From Callorhinchus milii (Eukaryota): DNA of 64,000 bases. The position numbers and the translations under genes were made by a program. The first letter of the stretch is position 1. Each line of letters starts with the position of its first letter. This document shows, piece after piece, positions 791 to 53,486 of the stretch. The DNA is taken from positions 64,420,001 to 64,484,000 of the forward strand of contig NW_024704742.1 in NCBI RefSeq assembly GCF_018977255.1, written 5' to 3'. The notes under the pieces were generated by a model. The model saw only the letters and a list, made by a program, of their open reading frames with translations, did no database searches and had not been told where the DNA came from.

Positions 791-1013
791 ATTGAATGGA
801 AGCAATGGGCAACAGTGAGCACCCAGCAAGGCTGGATAAGAATTCCAACGCAGAAAATATCCCCGTGATATATTGCTGCTAACGAGGGGAAGAAGCCAGA
901 CAAGTCCTCTGACTCTGAAATAATACCCTGACGATTATTTGGTAGTGGTTTTTCATTTCTTCTCCATTTTGAAAGCAGTTGCAAAGGTCTTTCATTATTT
1001 GTGTCGAATAATG
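791..1013 (-). CDS. HGFAC-like exon: linker, degenerate activation site and start of trypsin-like domain ([74 protein letters not shown])
   Basis: Acceptor ttgtgcttcag, donor gtatgt, 223 nt, phase 1-2; His57-motif VAHC with His codon at 805-807. Confidence 0.92.
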
Positions 1014-4000
1014 CTGAAGCACAACAGAAAAATGTAGTTATCTTGAGATAAAACTGAACTTAATAATAAGAATAATCCTTACATTTAATATAGAGCCTTA
1101 TCACGTCTTCAAGACGTCTCAAAGCTCTTCACAGAATGTACTGTAAAATGAAATGATTGTGGGAAACTTGGCAGTCAATTTTTTGCGCAGCAATGTCCCA
1201 CAAACATTAGAAGATTGTGTGACCAAATGTTTTTTTTAAAAGGGATTATTACCCTCAGAAAAGCGATCTGCCAATCGAATAACAACCGGGTTCCTACTTA
1301 CTGCTAGGTAAACAAAGGCATGTGGAGTAAGGAAACTTACACCTAACAATTCGCCCAGCCCGGGAATCAAACTTTTTTTGATGGTAACATAATTTTCCCA
1401 ACTTCACACATTGCATTGAAAATACTGAATATTTGGTATTTGCTTTTGGCTGCTGTACAAAGTTTCTATTTGCTTCATGTCTTACAGTTCTGAATTGTAT
1501 GTTTACATATTTTCAAAGCAACTTTACTAAAAAAAACTTTGTTAAATAAACTAATGTTTAATGGTCATTCTCGACTAACGTTGTCCATCTTACATCTGAG
1601 ACTAACTTCATTTTTTACTGCTGGAATCTTCTGGTTAAGTTAACTCCAGTTAAGTTAACTGGAGTCCTGTAGTTCAGTGGTTAGAGCACTCGCCTTGCAA
1701 GCAAGACACCTGGGTTCAATTCCAGGCAGAGCGAAACCTTGGGCAAGTTTCCTTACTCCACACAGAGCCTAATAATAATCCCTCCAAAAACAAAAAACAA
1801 TAATAAATTGGTCACTTTCAATCCACGACTGTTTGTGGGACACTGCTGTGCGAAATTGACTGCCACGTTTCGCCCACAAATATATGTTCAATTCACTTTA
1901 CAGCATATTCTGTAAAGCGCTTTGAGACGTCCTCCCGACGTGAAAAGCGCTATATCAAATGCAAGGATTATAATTATAATCTAGAAGACGTGAAAAGCGC
2001 TATATCAAATGCAAGGATTATTATTATTGTATATTATAAACCAAGGTCCTCTCGCGAGTGCTCTAATCAATACACTACAGGACTCCACACCAAACTTCCC
2101 ACCAAAATGTGCAACGATAACAATGGCCTGAGCTTGTGGTTGGGATCAGGAGGGGTGGAGGGCAGGGTAGGTAGAGATAGGGGGGTGACCAAAGGTACAG
2201 TTGAAGAGGGTCTTGAGATGGATCTTGAAGGAAGTGAAGGAAGAGGCGATGAAATGAATGGACTGTGGGATGAGGGTGGGGGGCAGAAAGGCTGAAGGCC
2301 CAAGTTTACAGCAACCAAGTGGGAAGAATCCGTGCCCCCTCCTCATGACCGTCTGCCCCTCCGAGTCTTACCATCAACACAAACTGACTGGTGAGTCATT
2401 CATCTGCAGAGCCCTGGGGACTGGGAACTTGCTGTGGCTCAGGAAGTGTCTAACAAGGCTCCGACCCATCATCTCGTCTGATCCAACATCTTGTGACCCA
2501 ATAATGTACAAGTCAACAACAACAACTTGTATTTATAGTGTGCCCTTCATGCGAGAGAGCGCTTAACCATTACATAGTTTAACGTCAAACCGCAGCTAAA
2601 GGGGAGGTGACAGTAGGGACAGTCGAAGAAGAAAATCTTCAGGTGTGATCTGAAGGGGGACAAGATGGAGAGATTGAGGCAGTGAGTTCCAGGTTAGGGG
2701 TTTTCATGGAGGAATCCACTGTTTAAGTCAGCAGCGCTTTTATCAGGGCTTACACCACTTGGCCATTTTCCCTCCCCAATTCAATCCACCTTGGAATATC
2801 CCAATATAGGTTTGACTGAAAGTTCTAAGAAAATAGTCAAGTGGTGTAACCCTTTTTAAAAGCGCTGCTGATGAGAGCAGAAAGAAAAATACACAACACA
2901 AGGGAAGAAATTAATAAAATGATAATTTGTACTGGTTGCACAGAGACATTAAACTTTTCTGGATCTCTCCTGTTCTGTAATAATAATAATCCTTGCATTT
3001 CATATAGTGCTTTTCACATCTTCGAGACACCTCAAAACGCTTCACAGAATATATTGTAAAGTGAATTGACTGTATATTTGTGAACAAAACGCAGCAGCCA
3101 ATTGCACACAGCAGTGTCCCACAAACAGTCATGGATTGAGTGACCAAATTTTTTTTTTTAAGCATTATTATCCCCGGAAAAGCGATCCGTCAATCGACTA
3201 ACAAACAAGTTCCTACTTACTACCAGGTAAACAGAGGCATGTGGAGTAAGGAAACTTGGCCAACATGTCACCCTGCTGAAATGTTATAAATATTATTTAT
3301 AAAATAATATTATTTTATTATATTATTTATAAAATAATATTATTTTATTATATTATCACCCGTAATAATATAATAAAATATTAGAACACTTACCATCAAC
3401 ACCACACTGAGGGATATGGCAATAATTCCAGGACACCTGCCCATTCAGTAGAGTGTAACACCACGGCTGTTCACTGTTGTCAGGGTTTCTACATCAGGGA
3501 GGAAAAAAAAATTCTATACGGAATTTTTCATTCAACAATAAATACAGTACAAGATAATTTACACTTACAGTACTTTTCGTGTCAGGAAGACATTCCAGCT
3601 AGGCACCAGAGTTGAGAGTAAGAATTGAGGAGGATGAGGAGGGGTACAACGACCAAAAGCGTGGTCAGAGAGATACCTTTTGAAATCAATACAACTCCAT
3701 ATGTATTCATTAATTCTTTGTTAAATTATGATATTAAATTGGCCATTCTGGTCCCCACACCCCTTCTTTTGAATTCCAGCTGTCCCTCTGAATTGCTTGC
3801 TCACTCCCTCCCTCCCCAGCCAACACTGGGAAGCACTTTAAAATTTCCTCCCAGCACTTTTAAATTTCTTGTATTGTATTTATTGTTGAATGAAATCAAT
3901 CTAAATATAAATGGTATTGTATTGCAGAATTATTAGTGAGACATATCTTCAAGTCAGAGACATTCAGAAGAATTACTTCAGCTGCCACCAACTTAATCAA

Positions 4001-7000
4001 AGGTGATGGTTCTGATGGTAACTTCTCTACATTGGACAACTTGAATATCCTGGTTCAGTCCATTATTCTTACTCATCCTTCTCTGGTGCTGCTTTGATGC
4101 CAAATCCTGTTGCTTATGAACTACACAAAGTACAAGTGGTGGTCAGAAGTGCACCAGTCCTCCAAATAAGTGAAGCAAGTGAAACAATATAAAAAGTGCA
4201 AAGAAATGGGATTAGGGTAAATTGCTCCAATGGAGGAGTTAGCACCATTATAGGTTTGATAGGCTAAATGGTTTCACAATGCCCCATAATTCCTATTATT
4301 TGCGAAATGTCAACTTATTTTGCCGTTATATATGTTACGAGATGCAAGGTAATTTGTCTTGCCACCTAATATTTCCATCATTTATGAGTGATTCATAATC
4401 ATAGTGTTTATGCCTATTTAGCATAAATATGTTCCATTGGATGGGGCGTCTATAACTAGGGGACACAAGTATAAGATAGTGACTAGGAGATCTAAAAGAT
4501 TTTAAGAAGAACTACTTCACATAGAGGGTAGTGAGATTGTGGAACTTGCTGCCTGAAACGATGGTTGAATCAGATATTATAGATGCATTCAAGAGGAAGC
4601 AAGACCTTCACATGAGGGAAAGCGGAACGGAAGCGTATGGGAGGGAGTAAGGAATGGAGTATAAACACTGGTATGGACTGGTTGGGCTGAGTGACTAGTT
4701 TCCATGCTGTACATTCTTTGTGATTCTTTGTAAAATTGCAATGTTTCCCAACATCAGAGTAAATTATCGCCCACTAGGTGGCAGTGCATTTCATCAGGTC
4801 AATATTTTGTTTTTCTTTATGAAATCCCAGTGACCACCATTTATTTTTATTATGAGGCAAGCGTTTTTTGTTTCGGAAATTTTTGGTCGCCAAGTTTTTT
4901 TATTGTGTAAAACATGTATTTCCTGCATTGGTATGTTAAGGTCAGGTGGAATCCACACACTCCACAGCAAAATATGAATGTTTTACTGACTGATTGGATG
5001 GCTCATAAAAACAATACAGGTATAATAATAATCCTTACATTTGGTATAGTGTCTTTTGTGTTGAGAGAATGACTCAAAGGGCTTAACTGTAAAAATTATA
5101 TATAAACAGAAGTGTAGACTAATGCAAGGCCAATTCGAACTTGGCAATGTCCCACAAACAGCCAAGAAGTGGCTGAGCACAAGATTTCTGGCTCATTTTC
5201 ATTGAAATGGTGGTGGGGAGTGGGGAGTATTGACATGGGTACTTCAAGTAATGCCACTTACATCAAAGATCTGGATTCTTCCACTCAGAGAAAGGCAGCT
5301 CCATTTATAGATAGCACCAAGCTGTAGATAACACTAAGATAGGGGGAAACTATGGCATGAGAGAAAGCAAACAGGATCAGATGTTAGCACTCCCGTTTCT
5401 GAGTCAGAAAGTTGTGGAGCTCCAGCTTCCCCAACACTACATTGAAATGTCAGAGTAGAATGGCCCAAGCTTCATATTGGGACTTTCTAGGCTGACATTC
5501 CAATGTTATTATTATTATTAGTGAGGGGGAGGGGGTCTGTATTGTCAGAGGTGCTATCCTTCGGGTGTGATGTTAAACCAAGGTCCCATCTTCCTGTTCA
5601 AGTCAACAATAAAGATCCCGTACCACTGCTCAAAAAGAGAGGGGTGTTTCTCTTGATGTCCTGGCCAGCAATCCCTCAAATACAAGTAATCAATCACTTC
5701 AAAGCTGTTTGTGGGACATTGCTGTGTGCAAATTGGCTGCAGCATTCACCTACATTACAAAATACGCATGGTAAAATCATTTCAAGCAATTTGAGCATTT
5801 TGATACTGTGATAAGGGGCTGTATCAAAATACAAGGATAATTATTATTATGTATGTCTTTTCACAGAGAGTAATCAACAGTTGGATTGGGTTACCAGAAA
5901 GGGTGGTCGGGAAACTGACTGATAATTTGAGTGAAACCCGGTCAGGGCATTATTTCAATAACAAACACAAATATTGCCCAGCAATGACATCATGAGTTAA
6001 GGTAACTCAGTAGAATATTCACATACAGGGGAAGCCTCTGTGGGAATGTAAAAGGACTAAAACACATAAACTACAGAGTGTCTCGACAATGATAAGATTC
6101 GAGTTGTTTTTGAACAACAGCTGTAAATAATTAGAGCAGAACTAGTGTCCTTGTACTGTCTGCAAATGTATAATGAAGCTTGTGATGATTGAATGCTTGT
6201 CAATCAACAGCAAGAATTGTTTGAGACACGAGTTAAGCATGAGGTGATTGCAAATAATCATGTATATAAACTAATGGGACTGCCCCGTTGTTAGAGGGAG
6301 AGTACCGACTCTTCTGAGAGAGTGCTATTGTACTGCCTCTCGCTTTCCCTCTCCTTGCTGCAAGTATTTGAATAAACTATATTTCTGAGCTAACTCTGTT
6401 TGTGAGTGTTCGTTTAATCCTAGCTATAGCGACATCATCCTGGGTTCGACAGGACACATTAAGCCGGACACATTGGGGTTGGTCGTTTTGTCCAATTTAC
6501 AGTTCGGGGTTAACTGGCATCCAGCTAAAGTGGTTTCCACTGTATTCGTCTCTGTAATTCTAGAGTTTCCTACCTGCAGAAGGAGTGATCACCTAAACCA
6601 AACTGAAGAAGATCATCTGAAGAAGAGATGTTGAACTTAAGTTTCATAAACGGCAGATTCCATTTCATGCAGTAATCGTCTGAAGCAGTCTTGTCTTCAG
6701 TACCTTTATAGCCAACTCCATTATTTTCATAACATTTAGTTAAAACATCTAGATATAAAAACAAATAGTTAGTTCATGGCACACAGCTGTTATCACTAAT
6801 AGTAGTAACAGCAATTCATTACATGCTGGATCCATTCAAATTTTCAAGACTGAGGTTAATAGATATTTGTTAGGTGAGGGTATCAAGGGATATGGGGCAA
6901 AGGTGGGTATCTGGAGTTGAGGTACAGATCAGCCATGATCTTATAGAATAGTGGAACTGGCTAGAGGGGCTGAGTGTCCTAACCTGTTCCTATGTTCTGA

Positions 7001-10000
7001 TATCCGATGATATATGCTATATAGACTGGATAAGTTAGGCCTTTTTTCTCTAGAGAAGAGACATTTAAGAGGAGACCTAATAGAGGAGTTCAAAATTATA
7101 AAAGTATTTAACAAGGTTGTCATAAGTAGGCAGTTTATCACTTGTGGGGGAGTCGATAACCAGGGGACACAAGTATAAGAAAATCTAATGAGAAGTGAGA
7201 ATGTGAAACTCACTGGCCAAAGTGGTGTTTGAATCAGATAGTATAATAATAATCCTTGCATTTGATATAGTGTCATATCGTGTCTTCAAGACATCTCAAG
7301 ACGCTTCACAGAATATTCTGTAAAGTGAATTGACTATATATTTTGAGAGTAAAACATGGCAGCCAATTGCATACAGCCGTGTCCCACAAACAGTCATGGA
7401 TTGAATGATCAATTTATTATTAATTTTTTTTGAAGGAATCTTTACCCCGGGAAAAGCGATCCACCAATCAACCATCAACCAGGTTCCTACTTACTGCTAG
7501 GTAAATAGAGGAGTGTGGAGTAAGGAAACTTTCCCAACATTTCACCCTGCTGAGAATCAAACCAGTTTCTCGCTTGCAAGGCGAGTTCTATAACCGTTGA
7601 GCTACAGGACACCGCAAAAGTATAGATGCATTTAAGAGGAAGCTTAATAGACTTATGAGGAAGAAAAAATAGAAGGCTATGGGGGGGAATAAGGAGAAGT
7701 AGAACTAACATGTAAACATACCTATTTCACAATATTGACCTGCAAAGCCCGCGGCACATTGACAAATAATCTCATTCTTCATTTGGATTATTCTACATTT
7801 CCCACCTTTGAGACATAGATTGATTAGGCATTCTGGAAGTTACAAAAGAGAGAAGGGAAACAAATAATAAAGTCAAATAATCATCTTTCCTTAATCCTTA
7901 CATTTGTCTGACACATGTAGAAACCCATCACCATGTTTAAGAATATCCAAACCAGACTAAAACAACAACAACAACAACAAGATTCCATTTATAGAGCGCC
8001 TTTCACGTCAGGAGGACGTCCCAAGGCGCTGCACAGTTGGGTCATGACCCGAGCAGGGGGGAAATGGTCAGGGTGAGGGGAGGGAAGGGAGGGAGAGAGG
8101 AGGGGGGAAATGGTCAGGGTGAGGGGAGGGAAGGGAGGGAGCGAGGAGGAGGAAGAGAGTCGAGAGGGGAGCTGAAGGCACGGTCAAAGAGAAAGGTTTT
8201 GAGACCGGCCTTGAAGGAGGAAAGGGAGGAAGCGGCGAAGGCACTGGGGGATGGAGTTCCAGAGCCTCGGGGCTGAGAGGCTGAAGGCCCGACCACCGAT
8301 AGTAGGGCGGTTGGGGCGGGGGACGTGGAGCAGACCGGAGCCAGAGGAACGGAGGGTACGGGCAGGTAGGTAAGGGGATAGTAGGTTGGAGAGGTAGGAG
8401 GGAGCAAGGCCGTGAATGGCCTTGTAGGTGAGGATGAGGATCTTGAAATCAATCCTCTGGGGGATGGGGAGCCAGTGGAGGCGAGCGAGGGTAGGAGTGA
8501 TGTGGTCCCGAAGCCTGGTGCGGGACAGTACACGAGCTGCAGAGTTCTGAATGACCTGCAGCTTGTGGAGGGAGGTGCCGGGAAGGCCGGCGAGGAGAGA
8601 GTTCCCATAGTCCAGCCTTGAGGTGACAAAGGCGTGAACCAGGGTTTCAGCAGCGTGAGGGGTGAGGTAGTGCCGTAATCTGGTGATATTCCGGAGGTGA
8701 TGGAAGGCGGTGCCAGTTGTGGTGCGGATGTGAGGGAGAAAGGACAGCTCAGGGTCCATGGATGTATTCCACTTGGACAAGGACATTTCCCTAAATCTGA
8801 AAGGGAGTACACATTCTCTCCCAGGAGGTACATGTCCTGCTTACCTAATTCCGGAGTATTAGACGTAGGTTGGCAAGAGACAAGGTTTGGGGATCCCAGA
8901 ATGTGTGTTGTGATAGTGCTGCAGTTTAACCTCATAGCTTGCCATTGAAAGCCCTGTCTGATAAGCTTCTCTCTGCATGTCCAGCTAGAACCAAACTACA
9001 TATTTATTACCTTTGGCTTGCAGGATTAACAGGAGCAAAGCGGGAAGAATTCCTAACCCCAATGAGTGGTCTGGCTCTCCAAGTGCTAGAGCCATGAGCC
9101 AGTCTGGCTAGCTTGTCGTCATCAATGTGCAGGAATACTGTGGAGCCATCTAGCTCAGGAACTGGACTACCACAGAGGGTTGCCTTGACTCCAAGCATTC
9201 TGTTGCCAAGCATGGCACCTCAGAACCAGCTCAGCTCCATGGAGACCCAGCTTGCCTCCGCTCCTCCAAGGAGAATAGTGGCAAGAGTTTTTACTAATAC
9301 CTTTGGACTTTACAGTTTGACAAGAAGACACGCTTTTAGTGCACTGGCAACTTTCAACATCATTCCCATTCATTCGGATCCAGGATTCTCCTTCAATGAA
9401 GAACCGGTATATTGATTTGTCAAAGCAGGTTTCTGGAAAACGCAATAGAAGAACAAGCTGCTTTTAGGGTATATACTGAAATCAAATTTTCAGCTCCGGT
9501 AATCACAGTACAGTGTAATCCCAAAGTATAATCTCCCAACCACATCACCCACATCAGACCTGAACGAAAGGCTTCTCTGGCGAGAAATTTTGGGCACTTC
9601 CCTGTCAATTAAATAATTTGAAAGTAAGGAAGAAAACGTAAGACATATTTCATTAAAATACTTGAACCCCTAAATTCTGCAGGGTTTTCTTTGGGATGGA
9701 ATTTGGACCTCCGTCACTACATCTCCCCTTGGGCCAATGAAACAATTATAAAATACTTGCGGAACTATCTCTTCCCTCAGACTGCTGAGACTCTCATCTA
9801 TGCATTCATTATGTCAAGGCTTGACTACGATAACTCCCCGTTATCCAGACTTACCAACTTTTTCCTCCACAAAGCTGTAGATCATTCAGAATTCTGCAGC
9901 TTGTATCCTCTCCCGCACTAAGCTTCATGAGTTGATCATCCTTGTCCGGCTTCACTGGTTTCCCCAACTCCCAGACAATCGAGTTCAAGATCCCTGTCCT

Positions 10001-13000
10001 CACTTTCAAACCCATCCATTGGCACTGGCCTGCTCCATGTCCACACCAGTGGAGGTCAGGCCTTCAATCTTTCTGCTCTCACCCTCTGGAACTCTATCCT
10101 GGAGCCCCTCCACCTCTCCCCCTCCCTTGCCTCCTTCAAGGCCAGTCTCAAGACCTTCCTCTTCGTCCGTGCCTTTGGTCATCTTTCCCACCCCCAACCC
10201 CATTGCTCTACATCCCTCCTGATTCCAATCTCTTCACTGTCCAGCACATTGGGACGTTCTCCCAATGAGAAAAATAATAATAATAATCCTTGCATTTGAC
10301 ATAGCACTTTTCACGTCTTCAGGTCGTCTCAAAGCGCTTCACAGCATATACTGTAAAGTGAATTGACTCTATATTTGTGGGAGAAACATGGCAGCCAATT
10401 GCGCACAGCAGTGTCCCACAAACAGTCGTGAATTGAGTGATCAAATAATTATTTTTTTCTTGAGTGGGGGGTGGTGGGGGGGTGATGGGGATGGATTCAG
10501 GTAACGAGTACCAGAGGTTCGGGGCCAAGTTGCCGAAAGCTCAGCCATTGATGGTGGTGCAGAATGGTCGGAAAACACACCTGTGCTATCTGAGCGAAAG
10601 GGACAGCAGAGGAGTGGGGTATGAGCAGGTTCAGTCAGGGAGCTGGAAATCCAGCTAGAGACATTCACAGCAATAAAGCATGGTGAGGGTGCCAGCATGT
10701 TTGGCAAAGAGAGCAATCTGCCTGGCCAGGGTGCCAGACTGTGTGGTGAAGGTGGCAGTGTGTGTGGCGGTGGTGGCAGTGTGTGTGGCGGTGGTGGCAG
10801 TGTGTGTGGCGGTGGTGGCAGTGTGTGTGGCGGTGGTGGCAGTGTGTGTGGCGGTGGTGGCAGTGTGTGTGGCGGTGGTGGCAGTGTGTGTGGCGGTGGT
10901 GGCAGTGTGTGTGGCGGTGGTGGCAGTGTGTGTGGCGGTGGTGGCAGTGTGTGTGGCGGTGGTGGCAGTGTGTGTGTGGGGGAGGTGCCTTTGTTATAAA
11001 TAGAACAAAAATAATTTTCCACACAGTAGTAAAAGCTATCTACCGATGGGCATTGACCAAACAAACGAAAATAGTCTTATTGATCGCTTTGACGAGTAAG
11101 TCAAATTGATCAGTGAGCGAGTATTAATTTTCTTTTCTTTTTATTACAATTTTTGCTTTTTTGTTTACTCCTTTTTTTTTTACTAATTCCTAATGATTAA
11201 ACATTTTTTAAATCAAAAAACTGTGAAATCCGAAGCGGAGCTTTACTCCCATACCTTCCTCACAGTGACTTCCTGTAAATTCTGGCCTACATATGCAATG
11301 GTAATTGTTTGCAGTTTCAAGTTTCATGCAGGTGCCTTCGTTTTTACATGGCTGGTAATAGCAGGGGTCTGTGCAGAAAAAACAAAGTTAAATGTCATTG
11401 CTGTGCATTCTATTTCCATTAACTCATATCCCACATATTTAATGATCCACTCGTAACCCTTTTACCAAACACATGTCATAGTTACTGCAAATGTTACTCC
11501 TCTGTACAAAAAGGGGCAAAAGGATAAACCCGGGAACTACAGGCCAGTCAGCCTAACGTCAGTAGTGTGTAAACTTCTAGAAACTATAATCCCGGACAAA
11601 ATAAATTGTCACTTAGAATAATATGAGTTAATAAAGGACAGCCAACACAGATTTGTTAAAGGTAAATCATGTCTAACGAACCTGATAGCAGTCTAACAAA
11701 CCTGATGAGTTTTTTGATGAAGTAATGGAGAGTGTGGATGAAGGTAGTGCAGTTGATGTAGTTTATATGGATTTTCAAAACAACAACAACAACTTGGATT
11801 TATATAGCGCCCTCCACGCCGGACGGTGTCCCAGAGCACTTTACAGTAACGGATCCCGGGGCCGAGCCAGGGGCAAAGAGAAGAAGGTGACCAAGGCGCG
11901 GTCAAAAAGAAAGGTCTTCAGCAGAGACCTGAAAATGGGGAGGGAGCGAGACGAAAAAAGTGAGGAAGGCAGTTCCAGAGCCTCGGGGCACAGTGGCTGA
12001 AGGCACAGCCGCCGAGGGTGGAGTGGAGGACTCGGGGGACGAGGAGGAGACCAGACCCGGAGGAACGAAGGCAGCAGGTACTGTTTTGAGGAGAGAGGAA
12101 GTCAGAGAGGTAAGGGGTTGCAGAGGAGTGCAGGGACTTGAATACAAGGGTGAGGACCTTGAAATCGATCCTCTCTGGGATAGGCAGCCAGTGCAGTCTG
12201 GCACGGACTGGGGTGATTGGGGAGCGGAGTTTTGTGCGGGTGAGAATGCGGGCGGCAGAGTTTTGAATCAAAAGGCGTTTGATAAAGTGCCACATAAGAG
12301 ACTTGTAAGCAAAATAGAAGCCCACAATATTAAAAGGACAGTGGCAGCATGGATACAGAACTGCCTGGGAGACAGAAAGCAGAGAGTGGTGGTGAACGTT
12401 ATTTTTCTGACTGGAGGGAAGTGTGCAGTGGTGTCACCCCAGGGGTCGGTATTAGGACCACTGCTGTTTTTGATCTATATAAATGACCTGGACTTGGGTA
12501 TAGGGAATACAATTTCCAAGTTTGCAGATGATACTAAGCTAGGAAAAGTCGTAAATCGTGAAGAGGATAGTAGCAGATTGCAAAAGGACATGGACAGACT
12601 GGTAAAATGGGCAGACAGGTGGCAGATGAAGTTTAAAGTGGAGAAATGCGAAATGATGCATTTTGGGAGGAAGAATGAGGAGAGGCAATATAAGCTGATG
12701 GTACAATCTTAAAGGGGGTGAAGGAACAGAAAGACCTGGGAGTTCATATAAGTAAATCTTTGAAGGTGGCAGGACAGGCAGATAAAGCTGTTAAAAAAGC
12801 ATATGGGATACTGGGCTTTATAAATAGGGGTATAAATTGCAAAAGTCAGGAAGTTATGGCCTCAGCTAGAGTATTGTGTTCAGTTCTGGGCTCCACACTT
12901 TAGGAAGGATGTCAAGGCATTGGAGAGGGTGCAAAGGAGATTTACCAGGATGGTACCAGGAATGACGGGCTTCAGTTATCAGGAGAGGCGAGAGAGGCTA

Positions 13001-16000: not shown

Positions 16001-16389
16001 GCAGGACACTTCAAGTACTTTAATGCAGTGTCAGTGTGAATTCAAAATCCCGATGTGGGGCTTGAACCCACAAACTCTGACTCAGAAGCAAGAGTGCTAC
16101 CAACTGAGCCAAGCTGACACCTGACACGAGATGTAGATTCATATGAATACCATGGTACTATTTGAAAAGAGAAAGGAGATTCCTTTCTCCTAAACCCCTA
16201 AATAGAATTGATCATTCACTTCATAAATAAATTGGTCATTTTCAATCTACGACTGTTTGTGGGACATTGCTGTGCGCAATTGGCTGCCGCGTTCGCCCAC
16301 AAATATACAGCCAATTCACTTTACAGTGTGTTCTGTGAAGCGCTTTGGGACGTCCTCCCGACGTGAAAAGCGCTATATCAAATGCAAGG

Positions 16390-16421
<32 letters not shown>

Positions 16422-19400
16422 TGTCTGTGCTTGGGACATTGCTCTGTGCAATTGGGCTGCCACAAGCACCTACAAATACAGTCACTACACTTCCCAGTAA
16501 ATCCTGTAAAGTGCTTTATAATGCAAGCACCATCCATCCATCCACATTTTATCTTATTTCTCTTATTTTATAAATATCCTCTACTTATATATCTTATCTT
16601 TGAATCCATCTGTCTAAAGATCTTTAATCACATATATCAACCAACCAATCTAAACCTAGTCATTGTTGATCTATCTCTAACCTATCTATCCATTTATAGT
16701 GTATCTATCTCTGGTCTAGCAATCTATCTCTAGTCCAGCTATACTTAGGTTTCTCAGTTATTTGTTTAACTTTGAAGCCAGAAACCAGATTAGTTTATTC
16801 AGATTACATTTTATTTATTTATGAATGTAACCATTATTCTTTTATGTCTTTTAGTTTGTTTGTGGAGTCATTCCATGTGGCTTAAAGTATCAGCATAGAC
16901 TCAATGGACAAAAGACCTGTTTCAGTGCAGTATTATTGGATGATTCTATGATTTCTTTAAGAGACAAATAAGTTTGATTAATACTTTAAAACTGGATTAA
17001 AAAAACTGTTACAGACAATTTAATTCTGTTTTCTTCACTGACTGTAATGCATCTGTTAATATGTGGTTAGGGTGGTATTTGCTATTACAATTATACATTG
17101 GAAGATTCACTATGCCTATACCTCTTCTATATTTAGTGATCCGGAGAAATGTTTCACTCATATCAAAGGTGATTGGTGTGAGCTGAACGTGTAACAAAAC
17201 AGAGAACAGACATTACAATATCACAAGAGTGATTCAGATGAAGAAGGCCCTTTAGCCCATTCTTCCAAAATACCTACACACCCTTCCCATCACAGATCCG
17301 ATTTTTTTTTAAAAAAAAACATAAGTTTAGGTTGATCTGTGACAGAATCCTGGCAATCAGTTCCAGTTGTTTTTCACCCTGGGTAAAAAAAAAATCCTGG
17401 TCTCATCCTGAAATTGCTCTTTGTAACTCTGAACCTATGTCCTCTTTTGCTACTGTCTTGGAGCATCCTAAAGTGTTGATCTGGGTTTACTTTTTTAATC
17501 CCATTCAAAATGTTACTCACCTCTATAAGGTCCTTTCTGTAACTCTTGTATGTTGCGTTGACCAGAACTGTACGCAGTAGTCTAGCCGTGGCATAACTAC
17601 AGCACTAAATAGCTTGAGCTTGACGTTGGGAAATCTAGATTTCCCAATTGATCTCATCCTTCCAGAATGTTTCCAGATGTCCTGAAATTGTCATTTGCAG
17701 CCCTAAACCTATGTCCTCTTATTCTGCTGTCTTAGTTCACCTAACATAATTGGATTTGGTTTACTTTCTCAATTCCATTTGACTCAGAAGGTCTGTTCTA
17801 ATACGTCTCCTTTGTATCCTGAGAGTTGGAGCTTGTCTAATTGTTGCTCATAGCTCATTCCTCTAATACTAAGGATCATCCTCATTGTTCTCCACTGCAC
17901 TGTCTCTAGGACATCCTGTTTGCTCTGCTTATTGCTGCCTCACACTGTTTTGAGCAAATGGTGAGTGACAGGTCACCTTAAACCCCAAGATCTCTTTCAA
18001 ATTCCCCCTTCAGTAATTCTATCCCTTCCAATGAAATACATGTGTTTCCTATTTGTACTTCCTATGTGCAGTGCCTTACACATATCTGTATTGAACTTCA
18101 TTTGCCAGTCATCAGCAAACTCGAAAATGATTAAAAGATACACATCTCAGCATTTCACACTTTTGGAAACGAAAATGCAACAACATATAGCTCCTTTCAC
18201 AGAAGAGAATGTCTTGAAGAACTTTATATGGACAGTAACAACAACAAGATTACATTTGTATAGCGCCTTTCATGTCAGGAGGATGTCCCAAGGGGTTGGA
18301 CAGTGTACAGCATTTCAGACCCGAGCTGGGATTCGGGGAGTAAGGGAGGGAGGGGAAGGGGGGTGACTGATGGCATGGTCGAAGAGGAGGGTCTTGAGGC
18401 GGGACTTGAAGGAGGCTAAGGAGGGGGTGAGGCAGAGTGACTGGGGATGGAGTTCCAGAGGTTGGAGGCAGAGTAGCTGAAGGCTCTCCTGCCAATGGTG
18501 GGGCGGGTGGGTCGGGGGACATGGAGCAGGCCAGAGCCGGCTGAGCGGAGGGAACAGGTGTGTTGGTAGGGGGTTAGGAGGTCGCAGAGGTAGGGTGGGA
18601 TGAGGTCATGGAGGGTTTTGTATGTGAGGACCAGGATCTTGAACTGGATCCTCTGAAGGATAGGGACCCAGTGGAGTCGGGCGAGAGTGGGGGAGATGGG
18701 GTCACAGAGTTTGGTGCGGGAGAGGACACATACATACATTCAATGTATCAAACATAGAACAAAGTGGGAAGGAGGGAGGTGTAGGAAGTAGGTAGAACCA
18801 AGAAGCATAAAGATTTACAGAACAGAAGAAGGTAATTTGGCCCATCGTGTCTGTGCAGGCTCCCTCATGAACAATCCTTTCAGCCCCATCAACTGCCCTA
18901 TCCCCATAGCTCTGTAGCTAAATCTTTTTAAGGCATTTGTTTGGTTCCCTCTTAAAGACCAATGTGGATTCTGGTTTAACTTCAGGTGACTAAAAGCAGA
19001 CATAACAAGGTAGGTTTCGAAACAGATATTTTTGGAAGCCAATGAGAGGAGGGATTTGGGAGGGATTTCCAGAGAATGGGGGTCTAGTTTATGAAAGCTT
19101 TGCACCACTCCGCTATGATCAAAGAATTCTACTGAATTTCTTAACGTGAGATTTATTCCTTCAGTGAGAAAGTCATTACTGAAAATGAAATGTTCAATTC
19201 ACTCACCATACATTGGGCAAGGCGAAAGTTTACAGTAATCCCAAGAGGTACGATTATTCTGCCGAATATAACACCAGGGCTTTATATCATTGTCTGGGTT
19301 TCTGCAAGAATGAAAAGACAATTGCTTATTAGGGAATTCCCTCAAACGTAGTCCCCTATCCCACAGAACTTTACAGTTACCCATGTCAGCCAGCGTTCAG

Positions 19401-22400
19401 AGGTGCCATTACCAGTGGAGTCCTATAGCTCAGTGGTTAGAGCATTTGCTTTGCAAGCGAGAGACCTGAGTTCAATTCCAGGCAGAGGGCGAAACCTTGG
19501 GCAAGTTTCCTTACTCCACACACCTAATAATAATCCCTCCAAAACCCAAAACAATAATAAATCGGTCATTTTCAATCTACTGTTTGTGGGACATTGCTGT
19601 GCGTAATTGGCTGCCGCGTTCGCCCACAAATATACAGTCAATTCACTTTACAGTGTGTTCTGTAAAGCGCTTTGGGACGTCCTCCCAACGTGAAAAGCGC
19701 TATATCAAATGCAAGGATTATTATTAATTATTATTATTATCACCACCATCACCACAACAACAAAATGACATTTGTATAGCGCCTTTCATGTCAGGAGGAT
19801 GTCCCAAGACACTGGACAGTCAGTGTTTCGGACCTGAGCTGGGGGTCAGGATTGTGGAGGGTAGTGGGAGAAGCAGGGTGATCGAAAGCACGGTCCAAGA
19901 GGAGCGTCTTGAAATGGGTCTTGAAGGAGGCAAGGGACGGGGTGAGGCGGAGGGACTGCAAGATGGTGGGTGCAGAGTGGCTGAAGGCCCACCCGCCAAT
20001 ATTGGGGCAGGCGAGGCGGGGGACGTGAAGCAGGCCATAGCCCAGGATAGTAGGAACTTAGGAGGTCGCAGAGGTAGGGAGGAGCAAGACCACGGAGGGT
20101 TTTGAAAGTGAGGACTAGGATCTTGAACTATATCCTCTGTGTGATGGGAAGCCAGTGGAGTCAGGCGAGGATGGGGGTGATAGGGTCACGGTGCCTGGTG
20201 CGGGAGAGAACACAGACTGCAGAGTTCTGGACGATCTGCAGCCTATGGAGGGAGGAGTTGGGGAGGCCGACAAGCAGGGAGTTTGCATAGTTAAACCTGG
20301 ATGTTATGAATGCATGTATGAGGGTTCTGGCAGCTTGCGGTGTGAGACAGTGGCGGAGCTGGGCAATGTTGCGGAGGTGCGGGAAGGCGGAGCGGGTCAT
20401 GGCGCATATGTGGTGTAGAAAGGATAATTAAGGGTCAAACAAGATGCCAAGGTTTCGGACTGGCTTAGTGAGGTGGAATGTGCAACCATGGATGGTGACG
20501 CTGTCAGCGCCTGAGGTGTGGAGGCGCTGACGGGAGCCAATCAGGAGAGCCTCAATCGTGTTGATGTTCATCTGAAGAAAGTTAAGAATATTTGGTGATA
20601 ACATATCTGGCTATATAGCAATCCTTGAATTTTGATATAGCCTTTCATCAAGATCTCGAAGTGCTCTCCGCAATAAAATGAAAAGTGGTGAGACTATATA
20701 CATTTTGTGGTGAACCAGCAGCCAAATTGCACACAACAATGAACCTCAAACAACCATGAAATGAGTGACCAATTTTATTTGGGGTATTGTTGGCCAGGAC
20801 ACCCAGAGAAATTCCCTATAAATATTTCAGGTCTGTAGACCTGAAACGTTAACTCATTTTCCACTCTCCATAGATGCTGCCTGACCTGCTGCATGTTCCC
20901 AGCAACTTCTGTTTTCATTTCAGATTTCCAGCAGCTATAGTATTTTGCTTTTTGTAGATAGCTATTTGTTAGGTCGGGGTATTAATGGATACAGGGCAAG
21001 GGTGGGTAACTGGACTTGAGGTACAGATCAGCTATGATCTTCTAAAATGGTGGAACAGGCTCAAGGGGCTGAATCGCCTGCTCCTGTTTCTATGTTTCTA
21101 TGTCTCAAAGACATGATAAGGAGCTATATCAAATGCAAGGATTATTGTGTTTCGAAGCATGAGGGCAGAAAACTATTTTGAAAAACATTGAATTACTCTG
21201 AATGCCACTTAATAAACTCACAGATGACCACTATGTATATTTATATTTGCTTCCCACCTGCAGAAAGAATGACCCCCAAGCCCGAGTTTCTCCGCTTCCT
21301 CCACGTCGGTGATATTGTGCATGTGGCTCAAAAATTCAAATGTTAAAGACAGGCAGTCATGGCCTAATTCTGTTTTTGATAGAATCCCTCTGTATAATGT
21401 ACCTTGCTTTTCATAACACTGATCAATTACATCTGCAAAATAAATAGTAAATATTGGGTACCAGAACACTAAGCACACTAAGATGTGCTTACAACATAGC
21501 AGATTTGTGTCTACGGGGCCAGGCATTGTTGGAGGCAGAGCTTTGAGGTAAATCATTAGCAGTGGACATACAGTGTGCAACGTGCAGACCAGACCAATCC
21601 TTACTTATTGATAGGTCAGAGTATGAACTGTATACACACACCAATCCATTAACATCCCCAACTCAACCCACCCACGACCCACATCCCAACCAGCCCACCC
21701 ACTGCACACTCCCATTCACCTCACCTGCCAAGCACTAATGACACACTCCACACACACACGTGCACCTTTTAAATCACCCCACCACACACGCTCGCACCCC
21801 CTAACTCACACAACCCACAGGTGCACATATCCCCAACCTTCCCCATCAGCGTGCCCCAAAATACGAGCAAAGCATCTTGCTTGAATGTAAAGGTGCATTG
21901 TTTGTTGTAGCCATACCTAATTCACAATATTTTCCAATAAAACCTTTCTGGCAATCACACGCAAAGTACTTTCTCATGAGTACCGAGTGGCACTTTCCTC
22001 GATGAAAACACATTTTTGGGTTGCAAGCTGGAAGAGACACATACAATGGAAATACACAATTAATGAACAATAATATGAGGCTTACTTCTAGCCAGTATTG
22101 ACATTTACTGCAATTTTAAACCTGATCAATTTTATGAATTTTAAATATTTAATGCCATTAAATATCACTAATAATATCATACTTTTATTTGAGATAACAC
22201 AGATTTACATATATTGTACAATACAGAAACAGGCCGTTTGGCCCAATCAATCCACATTGGTGTTTATACTCCACATATGTCTCCATCCATTCTCCTCCCA
22301 TACCCTTCTTTTCCCTTCTCCCTTATTTTATTTTGTTCCGTCGGGTGTCTAACACGTGCGGAATACCCATGACTATCCTTTAGGTGTATATATATCTTCC

Positions 22401-25400
22401 TCTTACATAACAACAATAATAAAATTACATTTGTAAAGCACCTTTCACGTTGGGAGGACGTCCCAAGGTGCTGAACAGTCAGGGATCAAGATCCGAGTGT
22501 GGGGGCAGGGTTGGGATGAGGGAGGGCAGTGGGGGTAGGAGGGTGACTGAAGGCACAGTCAAAAAGGAGGGTCGTAAGTTGTGCCTTGAAGGAGGCAAGG
22601 GAGGGAACAAGGGATTGTAGGGTGGCGCTGCAAAGAGTGGGGACAGAGAGACTGAAAAGCCCGGCCGCTGATGGTAGGGTGGGTCAGGTGGGAGACATGG
22701 AGCAGGCCGGAGCTTGCTGAGCGTAGGGAGTGGACAGGTTGATAGTGGGTCAGCAGGTCAGAGATGTAGGAGGGGTCAAGGCCGTGGAGGGTCTTGAAAG
22801 TGAGGACGAGGATTTTTAATTCTGTCCTCTGAGGGATGGGGAGCCAGTGGAGCCGGGCGAGGGTGGGGGTGATGGGGTCATGGAGGCTGGTGCAGGAGAG
22901 GACACGAGCTGCAGAGTCCTGGATAATCTGCAGCTTGTGAAGGGAGAGTTGGGGAGGCCGACAAGGAGGGCATTTCCGTAGTCGAGCCTTGAGATAACAA
23001 ATGAATGAGGGTTTCAGCAGCCTGAGGGGTCAAACCTTGGCTCTTGCCAACCTGCGCCTAATACTTTCTGGAATTAGGTAAACAGGATGTGTTCCTCCAG
23101 GGAGAGAGTGCGCATTTCATTCCAACAATCTATCTCTGGGATTTCCAAGTGTTTGTGGGATGCAGGGAAACTCAGCTTGGTTAATTTATTTTCATGACAC
23201 TGCGGTGAAGTAAGGACTGACACAAATGTTTAATATCGTTTAGAAACTAAGCATTGGTGTAATTTGTTAGGTTATATTTAGTGAGTTGGAGATTGATTGT
23301 TGGTGTATACTGATGGGATGGAGTTAATTATACTGAGACATCGCAGTTATACCAGTCAGCAAATAATATGTCCTGTATAAGTGGACATATTATCAGATAG
23401 TGTCTGATCCCATTTCATGGCTAATAATCATAGGGACCTTCATTTACTTCATTAGCGCCATCCTCTGCTTTCTTATTTACTTGTTTATTGACAAGAAAAG
23501 ATGTGTTGGAGAGGCAGAAGTCAAAGTGACAGAACTTGAACTTCAGAATGCCCTAACCGGAGAAGGAAGAAATTGGAATTTGGAGTCACGAACCATATTC
23601 GAGCTTCTAAAGAAAGAAGATCAAGACGACGATTTAAACAACACTAAATGTACAATAACACCTTGATATCTTTGGGTGATATCAAACTGGAAACCGTACA
23701 ACAATAATTGGATACCTTTTGAGGACCATATTTGGATTCAAATGGGACATTAAATTGGACATTGCTCATGTGTCAGACACCCGCCTAACCAAAAAAAATC
23801 AATATTATAAAGGTAATATTTCTACAGGCAGCAGATTACCAGGGGGCTAAGTGTGCACAGCACTGTAATATTTGTAGAGTTACCTTCAGATATTAAGGTT
23901 TGATAAACAATCCCGGTATTAGTGCAGATGCTTCTTTGAGCCTTGCCATTATAAATCCGTGTCCACGTTTCTCCTATCCGGTAGTGTTTCAGGTGCTTTA
24001 GTTCAAAACACTTTTCTAAGAAGAAAAAGCAATTATTGAATAAATTGAAGCACAAAACGTGATGCAATGGTAATATGATCATAACATTTCTCATTTAATT
24101 TCTGAAGATTTCATTTTATCAAAGAATATGGCCTACTCCTGCTCCTAATTCTTCTTCTTATATCAATGGCTGTTTGTAGGAGACTGCTGTATACAAATTG
24201 GCTGCTATGTTTGCCTACAAATACCTTGGAACTGAAGTAAAGTCCTGCGAAGTACTGTGTGATGCCTCGACAGGATGATAAGGTACTATGCCAAAATGCA
24301 AGAAGTATCAATATTAAACAACAGCACAGAAAACTATGTTACAAACTGTATCCGCACAGGTAACAATGCTGTTTTAAATATTACACTGGAAATTAATTTG
24401 ATTCAGTTGATCGATATTTGATTTGATGATTCATCGATATTTGAATAATAATAATCCTACAATTCTTGCCTTTGATGTAGCGCCTCATCACATCAAATAA
24501 TCTCAAAGTGTTTCACAGGAATTACTATAAATTGTAGTGATTGCATGACTCCATGTTGTTTTCTTGTACAGCTGAGATTCGGAGACACTGCATCGATGTA
24601 GATTGTTCACCCAATAGGGGTGAATGCTGCGCACAGATTACAGCATAAGGGGTTAAATAAATAAAACTCGTGCATGTTGAGTCCTGTAACTCAGTGGTTA
24701 GAGCAAGCAAGTGCATCTGAGTTTGATTCCCAGCAGGGCGAAACGTTGGGCAAGTTTCCTTATTCCACAAGCCTCTGTTTATCTATCAGTAAGTAGGAAC
24801 CCAGTCGTTAGTCAATTGGCGGATCGCTTTTCTGGGTATAATAATCCCTTTGAAAAAATGTGATCACTCAACCCATGACTGTTTGTGGGACACTACTGTG
24901 TACAATTGGCTGCCGCATTTCACCCACAAAATATACAATCAATTCACTTTACAGTATATTCTGTGAAGCGCTTTGAGACATCTCAATGATGTGATAAGGC
25001 GCTATACCAAATGCAAGGATTATTATTATTTACAGGTGAATGCAGCAACCGATTTTTACACAGCAATGTCCAACAAGGTCCTACCAATTTCATACAGCAA
25101 TACAACACTCCTGACAATATAGAACCCACTCCCCCACCCCCACCAGTACTCTGGTGGAGTGCTGGGGGAGTTTCCGCAACATCGGAGGTGCTGTCCTTCA
25201 GATGAGATGTTAAACCAAAGTCTCGTCTGTCTGTTCAAGTGAACGTTAAAGATCCCAAGGCACTATTCAAAAAGAGAAGAGAGTTTCTCTCAGTGTCCAG
25301 GCCCAATATCATCCAAATAAAATTGATTACTCACTCACTCCACTCCGTGGAGTCCTGTAGCTCAGTGGTTAGAGCACTCACTTTGCAAGTGAGAGACCTG

Positions 25401-28400
25401 GGTTCAATTCCAGGCAGACAGGGCGAAACCTTGGGCAAGTTTCCTTACTCCACACAGAGCCTAATAATAATCCCTCCAAAACCCAAAACAATAATAAATT
25501 GGTCATTTTCAATCTACGACTGTTTGTGGGACATTGATGTGCGCAATTGGCTGCCGCGTTCGCCCACAAATATACAGTCAATTCACTTTACAGTGTGTTC
25601 TGTGAAGCGCTTTGGGACGTCCTCCCGACGTGAAAAGCGCTATATCAAATGCAAGGATTATTATTATTGCTGTTTGTGAGACATTGCTATGCTCAAATTG
25701 GTTGCTACATCCACCAACGAAATAGACACTGTTACATCACTTTACTGTAAATCCTAAGTTTAGAGATGTCTCGACAATGTAATAAGGTGCTATATCAAAT
25801 GCAAGGATTATTATTATTACAAACAGCCAGGAGGTGATTGATCAATTTAACTGGAGGATTGTTGACCGGGACTTTGGGAAAAATTCTCCTCCCCTTTCCA
25901 ATAATGTCATGGATTTTTTAACATTCATCTGAACAGGTGGGACCTCAATTTCATATTGCAGAGTTACTTATCAATTTGTGGAAGCACACCTCTAAGGTTG
26001 GATCTATTGAGTAAGAAAACTAAACAATATTGTTGATTGGAAACTAGCTGTTGAATCAAGTAAAGGAAAATATCCATTTACATCACATCCATTTGAATTT
26101 GCCGTTAAAAACGTTTAATTTTAAACAGGACATTTTTATAATAATAATCCGTGCATTTGATATAGCACCTTATCACATCATTCCGATATCTCAAAGTGCT
26201 TTACAAGATGTACTGTAAAGTGTCCAACAATTCTGTGTATTTTGTGGGTGAAACGTGGCAGCCAATTGCACACAGCAGTGTCCCACAAACAGTCGTGGAT
26301 TGATATACCACCCAAAACTTTTGAGGGATTATTAATGGAAAATGATCCTCCAATCGACTAGCAACCGAGTTCCTGTTTACTGCTAGGTAAACAGGCGTGC
26401 GGAGTAAGGAAACTTGCCTAAGGTTTCGCTCTGCCCGGCAATTAAAACTAGGTCCTCTTGCTTGCGAGGTGAGCACGCCAACTACTACACTACAGGACTC
26501 CGTCATAAGATAATGACATGTAGGATTATTGGGATAGGCTTGAAAAATTACATCTGTTTCAATGGGCACAGAGGTGTTTCAGAGGAGATCAAATGGAGAT
26601 CTTCAAAACTCTGAACCATTTCGAGAGCATTTCAGTTTGAAAAGAGAAACAAAATATAGTTCATAAAAAGAACTATAGAAAAACAGCTTCTAAAGTAGGA
26701 CGGAATTTAAAAATCTTGCAAACTTTCACACAACTTGAGTATTTAAGAATACAGCCTTTAGGCTGAGACTGCAAGAAATTTCAGGCCTCGGATTCCAGGA
26801 CACATTTCTCAGAAGAGGACTCGCTGAAACGAAAATTGTTAGGTGTTTTCATTGACTGTTTCTTTTTGTAGCATTCAGTATGGTATTTGACTGTTCCAGA
26901 CAAAAACTAAACATCGTTGCTTTCTCAAGATGCATGTTTGTTACTTACCAGTCTCACAGTGTAGGCCTTCATACTTCTCTGAACAGATACATCTGTAGGT
27001 GTCCTGTCCAGGAAAATCAATACAGAATCCATTGTTTTCACAGATAACGTTTTCACAAAATTCTGAAAAAAAATTGCCAAATGAATACAGTCTCCTTTAA
27101 AAAGTTGAGGGTTTAAGCCCCTTGTTGGGACTTTGAATTCACATAGTATAAAGTATTTAAACTGTCCTTGTCTCTTACAATCCTAAATCGGATGACCCTC
27201 CAGTGTAGCTCTGGGGTGTGCTGTATTGTTGGATGTGCCATCCTTCAAATTGGACATTAAACCGAGGTCCTGTCTGTGCCTGTCCCATGACACTTCTCAA
27301 AAGGAGAAGAGAGTTTCTCCTGGTATCCTGGCAATCAATCCTCCAAATAAAGTTGGTCATTCATTTCATGCCTGCTTGTGGGACACTGCTGTGTGCAAAT
27401 TGGCTGCCGTGTTCATCCAAAAAATTCACACAGTGGATATACACAAGTATATCCTGTAAAGCACTTTGAGATGTCTCAACCACATGATAAGGCACTAGTG
27501 TATATCAACTGCAAATGATACTCAATTACTATTGTGAAGATTGTCTCAATAACATATCCTGCTGCTGATGAAATCTTTAAACCACTCAAACAGGCAGACA
27601 GAACCTTTGTTTTCATATCCAAAGGGCTGCAGCCCCAACTATGCAGTGCTCCCTCAGCATTATAGTGTTAATCTAGACTGTATGAGTTCTGAAGTCCTAA
27701 CATGGGGCTTGAACCCACACCTTTCTGAGGTGAGAGTGCCACCAACTGAGCCAGGCTGACGCACGACAGCCAATTTTGTAATTGTCTTAAATTCAAAGTG
27801 GAATTTCAAGCCCCAGGAAACAAATTACACATTCAGCCAAATATCAAATGCAAGGATTATTATTTTATTATTATAAATGTCTGACTGAAGATACTGGAAC
27901 TGAAACGTTTTACCTGTTGATATCAGCACTGAGTCTTTGCAAAAGCCCCTCAAAAGATCAGCATCAAAGTCAGGTGTAGTGGCACACCTGAAATAGAGAG
28001 CAACAGATTGGGCTTCTCATGCTTCCAGAACCCCACCCTACCATCTCCCCAGTCACATCAAGCTACTTATTAAATGAATCCCAGTGCCCTCTCCTCTACA
28101 ACTTTTCCTGGCAGCCTGTTTGAGTCATTGATTATGCTAAGCAAACCTTCCTGGTTTCTGTCCTGAGATTGCGCTTTACAACTCAAAACTGATGTTCTCT
28201 TGTTCTTCTCTCTTGTCGCATCTTAAATTGATCTGGGTTTATTTTCCCAATTCCATTTACAATTTTGTACATCTTTATGAGATCCCCACTGTCTGTTCTC
28301 AAGACCGAAGAGCCTTAGCTTGTCTCGCCATTGCTCATAGCTTATAGCTCATTCCTTTAACACCAAGGATCATCCTCATTGCTCTACTCTACAGGAGCAA

Positions 28401-52397: not shown

Positions 52398-53486
52398 GAT
52401 GAATCATGGCAGTAAAACAATCTAAATTAGTGTACAGAATTATACAAACAAGATAGTAAAATTTACAAATAGCCAAGAACAATGCTTTTAATCAAAAAAG
52501 TAATGATTTCTTGGGTTAAATTTCATGCAACAAACTTTTCATAGAGGATTTTCCAGTTATAATTATTTGCTGAAAACAGAACAAACATCTGGTAACCTGA
52601 TATCACATCCCCTTCAGGGATAATGTTGCAATTAATTTTTGACAGCCAGGTTACAAAATGAACATTGTTCAATGTAAGCCTGTTGGTTTTCAATTATTGT
52701 TTAATTATAAAATTATAATTTGTTAAAAATTTTCTCAAAGAGCCTACTAACATTCATGAAAAGTAAAATACTAAATGAAGGCACTTAGAGTATAGGCAAT
52801 TGCTTCAATCATCTAGCTCTTCAAAAGTATCTTTGGTCTCAAACCTATCATCAAAGTATTAGTTATCATTTACATTACATGAACTTAAATCATTCTGCAA
52901 TTAAATTTGCGCAATGCTGCATGATATAAAAACAAATATTTCAACTGAGTTTAAACTAAAACTTCAGTACCACCTAAAATGTGCACTCTGACAATGAGAT
53001 GATCAGGGAGATTAGAATGAGTTACTGTTGTTTGTCAAACAATGTAAAAACTGATTTGTGAAAAAGTGTTAATCATATTTAAAAATTATGTGTGGTCCTT
53101 GGATCTGTCTTGTGATAATTTCTCAATCACCAGTGCAGTGACATAATGTTTAATAAAACATTGCAGGAATTATTCTAGAAAGTGCAACGGGCCCAACAAA
53201 ATATCCTCAAACACAGTTAAAATTAATTACATAAAAATAATTTGTATGATACACATTGAAGTTCACCTTTTCTAGTGTCCCAATCCAGAGTTTTTTGTAT
53301 TCTCTACAGTACTATGAACAGTTAGATACTGCAGAAAACATATGTGAACTGATAAATTAGTGCATTATGTATGCTTTGCAAGTCCTTTTCCAGTTTTAAA
53401 AATATTACTTTCAATACAATCAACAACACATTTAAAAATTGTTATGAATTATCCAGTCAACAAATGGACACACCCAATTTAAATAC

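Follow-up and report, generated by a model that had tools for sequence, protein, structure and literature searches.

The 64,000-nucleotide stretch of the Callorhinchus milii genome considered here (the window: assembly GCF_018977255.1, contig NW_024704742.1, positions 64,420,001 to 64,484,000 of the forward strand) carries on its minus strand a gene of the HGFAC family, whose protein is referred to as HGFA. The locus is rather likely to be the positional orthologue of HGFAC in a holocephalan, with its EGF-FN1-EGF-kringle cassette in tandem and with a product that is non-catalytic and still folds. The original prediction of one HGFAC-family gene encoding FN2, two EGF-FN1-EGF-kringle cassettes and a protease domain is upheld by Pfam assignments made exon by exon, by a spliced junction between the cassettes and by collinearity with a shark protein.

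From FN2 to the stop codon, the gene model comprises 17 exons, all with AG/GT borders, spread over 32.8 kb and encoding 749 codons without a stop. All exons lie on the minus strand. The FN2 domain is split between an exon of 97 nt (28717..28813; AG/GT; Pfam fn2 E 2.6e-07, profile positions 1-19 of 42) and one of 74 nt (27914..27987; Pfam fn2 E 0.031, profile positions 27-42 of 42, below the cut-off alone), the latter joining in frame with both the first FN2 exon and EGF1. The first cassette, unit 1, then consists of EGF1 (114 nt, 26949..27062, Pfam EGF E 2.2e-06), the FN1 or finger domain (132 nt, 23884..24015, Pfam fn1 E 1.4e-05), which has two cysteines in place of the usual four, EGF2 (111 nt, 21917..22027, Pfam EGF E 1.9e-06) and the two halves of kringle 1 (175 nt, 21258..21432, Pfam Kringle profile positions 1-51 of 79, E 2e-05; and 95 nt, 19207..19301, the exon K1b, profile positions 53-79, E 1.7e-07). 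Unit 2 repeats this series with EGF3 (114 nt, 11255..11368, Pfam EGF E 1.3e-06), a finger with four cysteines (132 nt, 9301..9432, Pfam fn1 E 5e-06), EGF4 (111 nt, 7722..7832, Pfam EGF E 3.8e-06) and the kringle 2 exons K2a (175 nt, 6574..6748, Pfam Kringle E 4.8e-06) and K2b (95 nt, 3394..3488, Pfam Kringle E 1.2e-08, above the cut-off). The linker and the first protease-like exon, P1, follow at 791..1013 (223 nt, Pfam Trypsin E 6.1e-07), and the other four protease exons lie beyond the window start, at L009 9673-9534, 9437-9297, 7720-7581 and 6178-5996. Single half-domain exons mostly fall under the whole-domain cut-off of Pfam. Taken over the gene, Pfam recognizes fn2, four EGF and two fn1 domains, Kringle in 4/4 half-kringle exons and Trypsin in 3/5 protease exons, in the HGFAC module order FN2-EGF-FN1-EGF-kringle-S1 with the cassette present twice, as in elasmobranch HGFA.

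Two stop-free five-exon units with identical exon lengths and phases had been proposed from inspection alone, and both bear up under this analysis. The ten exons measure 114, 132, 111, 175 and 95 nt in each unit and occupy the coordinates first assigned to them; each is entered in phase 1, has an AG acceptor after a pyrimidine tract and has a GT donor. Joined, they give 1254 nt, or 417 open codons. A scan for open AG/GT exons of 132, 111 and 175 nt returns 7, 6 and 3 candidates in the unit 1 interval and 9, 13 and 4 in the unit 2 interval; a single candidate per length class encodes the domain, and the others are chance candidates. The acceptor of the first FN2 exon is uncertain because a lungfish HGFAC N-terminus aligns upstream of 28813, across 28814-28868 (48% over 29 residues, E 2e-4 by tblastn), where the minus-strand frame is open. 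Position 28813 (phase 1) was chosen, and the in-frame acceptors 28850 or 28868 may be used instead.

The two units are also recognizably alike in sequence. They align without gaps, with 327/627 nt and 75/208 amino acids identical, and all 20 cysteines of unit 1 stand in register with 20 of the 22 in unit 2. In-frame nucleotide identity is 325/624, against 167 +/- 11 in codon shuffles, and none of 2000 shuffles reaches 325. The second halves of the kringles have 14/31 residues in common, the figure originally reported. An estimate of the ratio of nonsynonymous to synonymous change (dN/dS) between the units gives proportions of differences of 0.746 at synonymous sites (pS), which are saturated, and 0.416 at nonsynonymous sites (pN).

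Transcript evidence comes from read contigs of three RNA-like runs (X1-X3), compared with window:700-20699 alongside those of a DNA-like run (X4); X1-X3 were typed as RNA by guess, with shares of 0.14, 0.10 and 0.07 of L009:5000-10000. X1 record 5 (239 nt, depth 5.1) runs from 19303 to 19207 and then from 11368 to 11255, without other letters. This is the junction of kringle 1 to EGF3 (19207 to 11368) that the original prediction had named as its check. X2 record 10 (402 nt, depth 3.7) contains two junctions, one from 11255 to 9432 and one from 9301 to 7832; EGF3 is covered exactly by both records and EGF4 by the second. Splicing of K1b to EGF3, FN1 and EGF4 is thereby observed directly. X1 record 1 covers 863-1013 without differences and ends at the predicted P1 acceptor, with 27 more letters unplaced. 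Contigs of the DNA-like run continue straight across the same exon borders, and X3 has no spliced piece among the matches listed. A processed genomic copy is an unlikely source of the spliced contigs because, apart from the locus itself, the 991.5-Mb assembly contains no close copy of the K2a, FN1-1, FN1-2, FN2a or P1 exon. Short interspersed repeats are abundant in the introns and dominate the read-contig tables.

These contigs bear on whether the cassettes belong to one product. Two genes, or mutually exclusive cassettes, would never place both units in one mature mRNA and would yield a single-cassette protein. The phase symmetry of the cassette allows this, as skipping one unit keeps the frame, and no single record among the matches listed spans both units. 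Nonetheless, such an arrangement is very improbable, given that in X1 record 5 the closing exon of unit 1 is followed at once by the opening exon of unit 2 and that annotated elasmobranch proteins, with one of which the gene model is collinear, hold both units in series. Both units would thus be spliced into one mRNA, although minor isoforms that skip a unit may occur.

Assignment to HGFAC draws on position, structure and phylogeny. The last coding exon of RGS12, with a GoLoco motif and RGS12_usC (E 3e-30), is found at 53482-54204 (minus strand), upstream and on the same strand. The HGFAC-like gene can therefore be placed directly downstream of RGS12, which we take to be the position of HGFAC in other vertebrates, human included. 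Among solved structures, human HGFA (protease structures 1ybw and 2r0l), a protein with the same module types as the window gene, gives the best match to exons P1 (1ybw_A, E 1.3e-10), P2 and P3; for P5, tPA ranks first and HGFA follows closely. With the K2a exon as query, a full HMMER scan leads to an 812-residue protein with two matching stretches, the Heterodontus francisci HGFA XP_067885357.1, to whose second kringle K2a is 52% identical. In a single BLASTP alignment, residues 2-738 of the model pair with 56-802 of this protein at 334/744 identities (44.6%). The likeness extends to architecture: the shark protein has FN2, two 209-residue EGF-FN1-EGF-kringle cassettes and a protease, is collinear with the window gene and matches it unit for unit.

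Factor XII is sister to HGFAC and shares the modules FN2-EGF-FN1-EGF-kringle-protease with the window gene. Factor XII has a proline-rich region between kringle and protease. The corresponding linker in the window gene is different, with 29 residues and 3 prolines. No factor XII chain is listed among the solved matches of P2, and P3 matches factor XII far worse than HGFA. In a protease tree, the split between HGFAC and factor XII (support of 99 in the Shimodaira-Hasegawa-like approximate likelihood ratio test, SH-aLRT) leaves the window domain with HGFAC; its placement within HGFAC is unstable. The linker, the HGFA-like protease exons and this split argue against factor XII identity. tPA resembles the window gene in domain types, with two kringles, a finger and an EGF domain, and differs in lacking FN2, in having a single finger and a single EGF, and in the spacing of its kringles, which are adjacent, whereas those of the window gene are separated by EGF-FN1-EGF.

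The original prediction did not take in the state of the protease. An S1 domain is indeed present, but the loss of its activation site, Gly193, Ser195 and the interchain disulfide had been overlooked. In an alignment of 120 HGFAC and factor XII homologues, the linker Cys, Arg15, Gly19, Cys122, Gly193 and Ser195 are each present in 120/120 proteins and Gly18 in 118/120. The window gene replaces the linker Cys with Lys, Arg15 with Gly, Gly19 with Glu, Cys122 with Arg, Gly193 with Val, Ser195 with Ile and Gly18 with Ser. Alignment to human HGFA displays the same changes as Gly at the activation Arg, I-I-S-E for I-I-G-G and Arg at the Cys of P-I-C-L-P, and in the last exon the family motif G-D-S-G-G-P has become V-D-I-G-G-P. 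His57, in exon P1, and Asp102 are kept. Of 64 columns with conservation of 98% or more among the 120 homologues, the window domain retains 51; the 13 lost columns include these seven sites together with Pro124, Gly219, Lys224 and Gly226 around the S1 pocket. Of the conserved protease cysteines, 10/11 are present, the missing one being the interchain Cys.

The marks of an active enzyme are therefore absent: Ser195 of the triad with the oxyanion Gly193, the activation bond with Gly18-Gly19, and the interchain disulfide, whose two positions hold Lys and Arg. Loss of catalytic residues with retention of structural disulfides and an open frame is the pattern expected of an S1 pseudoprotease, to which class the domain can be assigned as far as sequence allows. 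The elasmobranch HGFA differs in keeping the Arg-Ile/Val activation bond, the linker Cys, Cys122 and G-D-S-G-G-P, and the catalytic loss is specific to the window lineage because elasmobranch sequences keep all these features. Bony-vertebrate HGFAC, with one cassette, likewise differs in being an active, cleavage-activated, two-chain protease.

Could the altered residues be assembly or consensus errors, with a normal, active HGFA as the true product? For Gly193 and Ser195, whose codons sit in the last exon and outside the window, the letters come from the assembly alone. Errors nevertheless are hardly a credible source: the changes are spread over three exons, those in P1 (linker Cys, Arg15, Gly18 and Gly19) are reproduced without difference by the RNA-like X1 record 1, and differences at 13/64 near-invariant columns, with identity to the shark HGFA protease at only 40%, far exceed sequencing error.

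These substitutions suggest how the protein may have changed. The S1 domain would have turned into a pseudoprotease in this lineage, with a canonical activation bond that could no longer be cut (Gly for Arg15, Ser-Glu for Gly18-Gly19). Loss of both cysteines would remove the disulfide between heavy chain and protease, and the absence of the oxyanion Gly193 and of the nucleophile Ser195 (now Ile) is accompanied by changes in the S1 pocket (Gly219, Lys224, Gly226). The predicted product is a single-chain, non-catalytic and still folded protein, which may act through its FN2, EGF, finger and kringle binding modules. HGF and MST1 provide a precedent for a functional kringle-bearing S1 homologue without catalysis. 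Both differ from the window gene in domain content, with a PAN domain and four kringles and without FN2, EGF and finger. Both are also still cleavage-activated and keep the interchain disulfide, features that are lost in the window gene. In the Squalus and Scyliorhinus sequences of HGF and MST1, Y-G-G-P takes the place of S-G-G-P (PMC6337849).

A gene that has lost catalysis may persist as a non-catalytic protein or may be decaying, and the evidence has to be weighed for both. In an extended form of the first case, the sole holocephalan HGFAC would have become non-cleavable and non-catalytic with its doubled binding modules still under selection, a proposal that stands at about even chances. 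In the second, HGFAC function was lost in holocephalans and the locus is a transcribed unitary pseudogene whose open frame survives as a relic of the decaying gene. Decay would account for the absence of seven functional residues that are near-invariant elsewhere. Long terminal branches point the same way: 2.06 changes per site for the protease, 1.12 for unit 1 and 0.62 for unit 2, against a median of 0.12; branches are several times longer in the window gene than in elasmobranch HGFA. Such branches fit relaxed selection too. The unstable placement of the protease domain within HGFAC likewise counts on the side of decay. Unit 1 furthermore lacks a universal kringle Trp and a finger Cys, and contig depths are low.

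Several results from annotation, gene structure and transcripts weigh, with these, against a folded and functional product. No holocephalan HGFAC protein is present in the protein collections searched, including the best 120 of 379 matches of the horn-shark HGFA, and PMC6337849 does not list HGFAC of C. milii; annotators could be treating the gene as a pseudogene, which would explain the missing protein model. The 5' exons and signal peptide, on which secretion and a complete open frame would depend, were not found: a scan for ATG, hydrophobic stretch and donor gave repeat-derived matches only, and tblastn with the N-termini of 12 HGFAC proteins matched the FN2 exon alone. The spliced contigs among the matches listed are the two described above, both from one study, and the RNA nature of the runs is a guess. 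None of the listed contigs spans both units and the protease, and the internal junctions of unit 1 and those from EGF4 through K2a and K2b to P1 are not directly seen in them. Finally, the assembly-only basis of the Gly193 and Ser195 codons applies here as well.

A folding non-catalytic protein is favored over a pseudogene because of the open frame, the 17 splice-site pairs, the conserved columns, the tidy cysteine losses and a simulation. Decay would have had to leave 749 codons open and canonical splice sites in 17/17 exons. Among 39 cassette columns with conservation of 95% or more across 42 other cassettes, 37 are retained in unit 1 and 39 in unit 2; for columns invariant in ten elasmobranchs, the corresponding counts are 53/74 and 65/78. 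The retention of protease cysteines at 10/11 positions argues in the same direction. The cysteines that are lost either form a pair or were odd ones: both interchain partners are gone, and the finger of unit 1 has lost the Cys that is odd (21 in total) in elasmobranch unit 1. The lost invariant residues of the protease cluster in activation, catalysis and the S1 pocket rather than being randomly spread. In a crude simulation of unconstrained point mutation of the protease coding sequence, the frame stays stop-free in 13/400 runs at 80% identity and in 1/400 at 62%, the latter corresponding to neutral change up to the observed excess divergence. Taken together, these observations make a decaying pseudogene unlikely, if by no means negligible.

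The tandem cassette itself has a longer history. The original prediction had presented the architecture as unrecognized in any characterized plasma protease, a claim of novelty that fails because the form is standard in annotated orthologues. Doubling of the EGF, FN1 and kringle domains in elasmobranch HGFAC was described in 2019, with sequences from Squalus and Scyliorhinus (PMC6337849), and restated in a 2026 preprint. A protein search with the horn-shark HGFA, of which the best 120 of 379 matches are listed, returns among these 12 elasmobranch HGFA proteins of 765-869 residues and 108 bony-vertebrate proteins, mostly named HGFAC with a few named factor XII or unnamed. By a cassette profile, 10/12 of the listed elasmobranch proteins have two full 209-residue cassettes, and the bony-vertebrate proteins used have one each. 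In sharks and rays, the doubled cassette is thus established by both publication and annotation as the normal form, and is not new. In the HGFA models of Narcine (P0085, 765 residues) and Hemiscyllium (P0086, 770 residues), one cassette is full and the other partial, which could reflect isoforms with phase-symmetric exons skipped or errors in the models.

The age of the duplication, by contrast with its novelty, is borne out: old and retained, it predates the split of chimaeras and elasmobranchs. A quick maximum likelihood tree was made from 46 cassettes, with the two partial elasmobranch models left out and two tPA-like sequences as outgroup. In it, unit 1 of the window groups with the unit 1 sequences of ten elasmobranchs (SH-aLRT 93) and unit 2 with their unit 2 sequences (97). 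Mean identities agree, at 42.4% between window unit 1 and elasmobranch unit 1 versus 37.3% to unit 2, and at 49.7% between window unit 2 and elasmobranch unit 2 versus 42.5% to unit 1. The duplication must predate the holocephalan/elasmobranch split because each window unit groups with the elasmobranch unit of the same number. The two units in turn cluster with each other (SH-aLRT 87), separate from bony-vertebrate HGFAC (83); the root is weak (65). By this tree, the duplication probably arose in the cartilaginous-fish stem, although it may be older and have been lost in bony vertebrates afterward. Differential loss in bony fishes, considered because by eye the zebrafish finger is unit-1-like and that of the coelacanth unit-2-like, is not supported by the cassette tree.

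The gene structure suggests a simple route to the tandem arrangement. The cassette measures 627 nt and is in phase 1 on entry and exit, and therefore unequal recombination within the flanking introns would add a copy without breaking the frame; such a recombination may have produced the second unit. The fingers have since diverged in cysteine content. That of unit 1 has three cysteines in the elasmobranchs examined (P0005, P0082, P0083) and two in the window gene, and the fingers of unit 2 and of bony fishes have four. These counts indicate that one disulfide disappeared from the first finger early in cartilaginous-fish evolution.

Other features of the locus and genome were recorded along the way. 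A second gene, with FN1-EGF-kringle-protease modules and an intact G-D-S-G-G-P, lies on contig G000 C7:10334500-10339818 (minus strand; L011/L012/L017), and its translated pieces are almost identical to the sequence labeled 'uPA-like Callorhinchus milii' in supplement 7 of PMC6337849. Its kringle is 44% identical to kringle 2 of the window gene, or 42% over 60 residues; kringles 1 and 2 of the window gene are only 35% identical to each other. Within the window, a 21-nt tandem repeat (11.3 copies, 98% matches) occupies 10740-10976, in the intron that separates EGF3 from the second finger exon, and produces long spurious open frames on both strands. Remains of long interspersed nuclear elements (LINEs) lie at 54847-59282 (plus strand) and 29451-30191 (plus strand); one LINE has a GDSL-esterase-like frame followed by endonuclease and reverse-transcriptase frames, and a second reverse-transcriptase fragment is found upstream of the first FN2 exon.

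What the window adds is the doubled form in a holocephalan, which makes the duplication older than the divergence of the two living cartilaginous-fish lineages, and an orthologue that differs at all seven activation, catalytic and interchain positions, yet keeps an open spliced frame and the fold-defining residues. No description of a holocephalan HGFAC or of its catalytic loss was found among the papers listed by a full-text literature search, which left subscription journals and genome-browser annotation outside its scope. If the gene is merely decaying, it represents an ordinary lineage-specific loss. If the product works, the HGFA heavy chain has a role of its own, naturally separated from protease function, which bears on the current debate as to whether fish HGFA acts like factor XII. 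Furthermore, if the sole holocephalan HGFAC is non-catalytic, activation of pro-HGF in chimaeras runs without HGFA, placing the identity of the activator in question.

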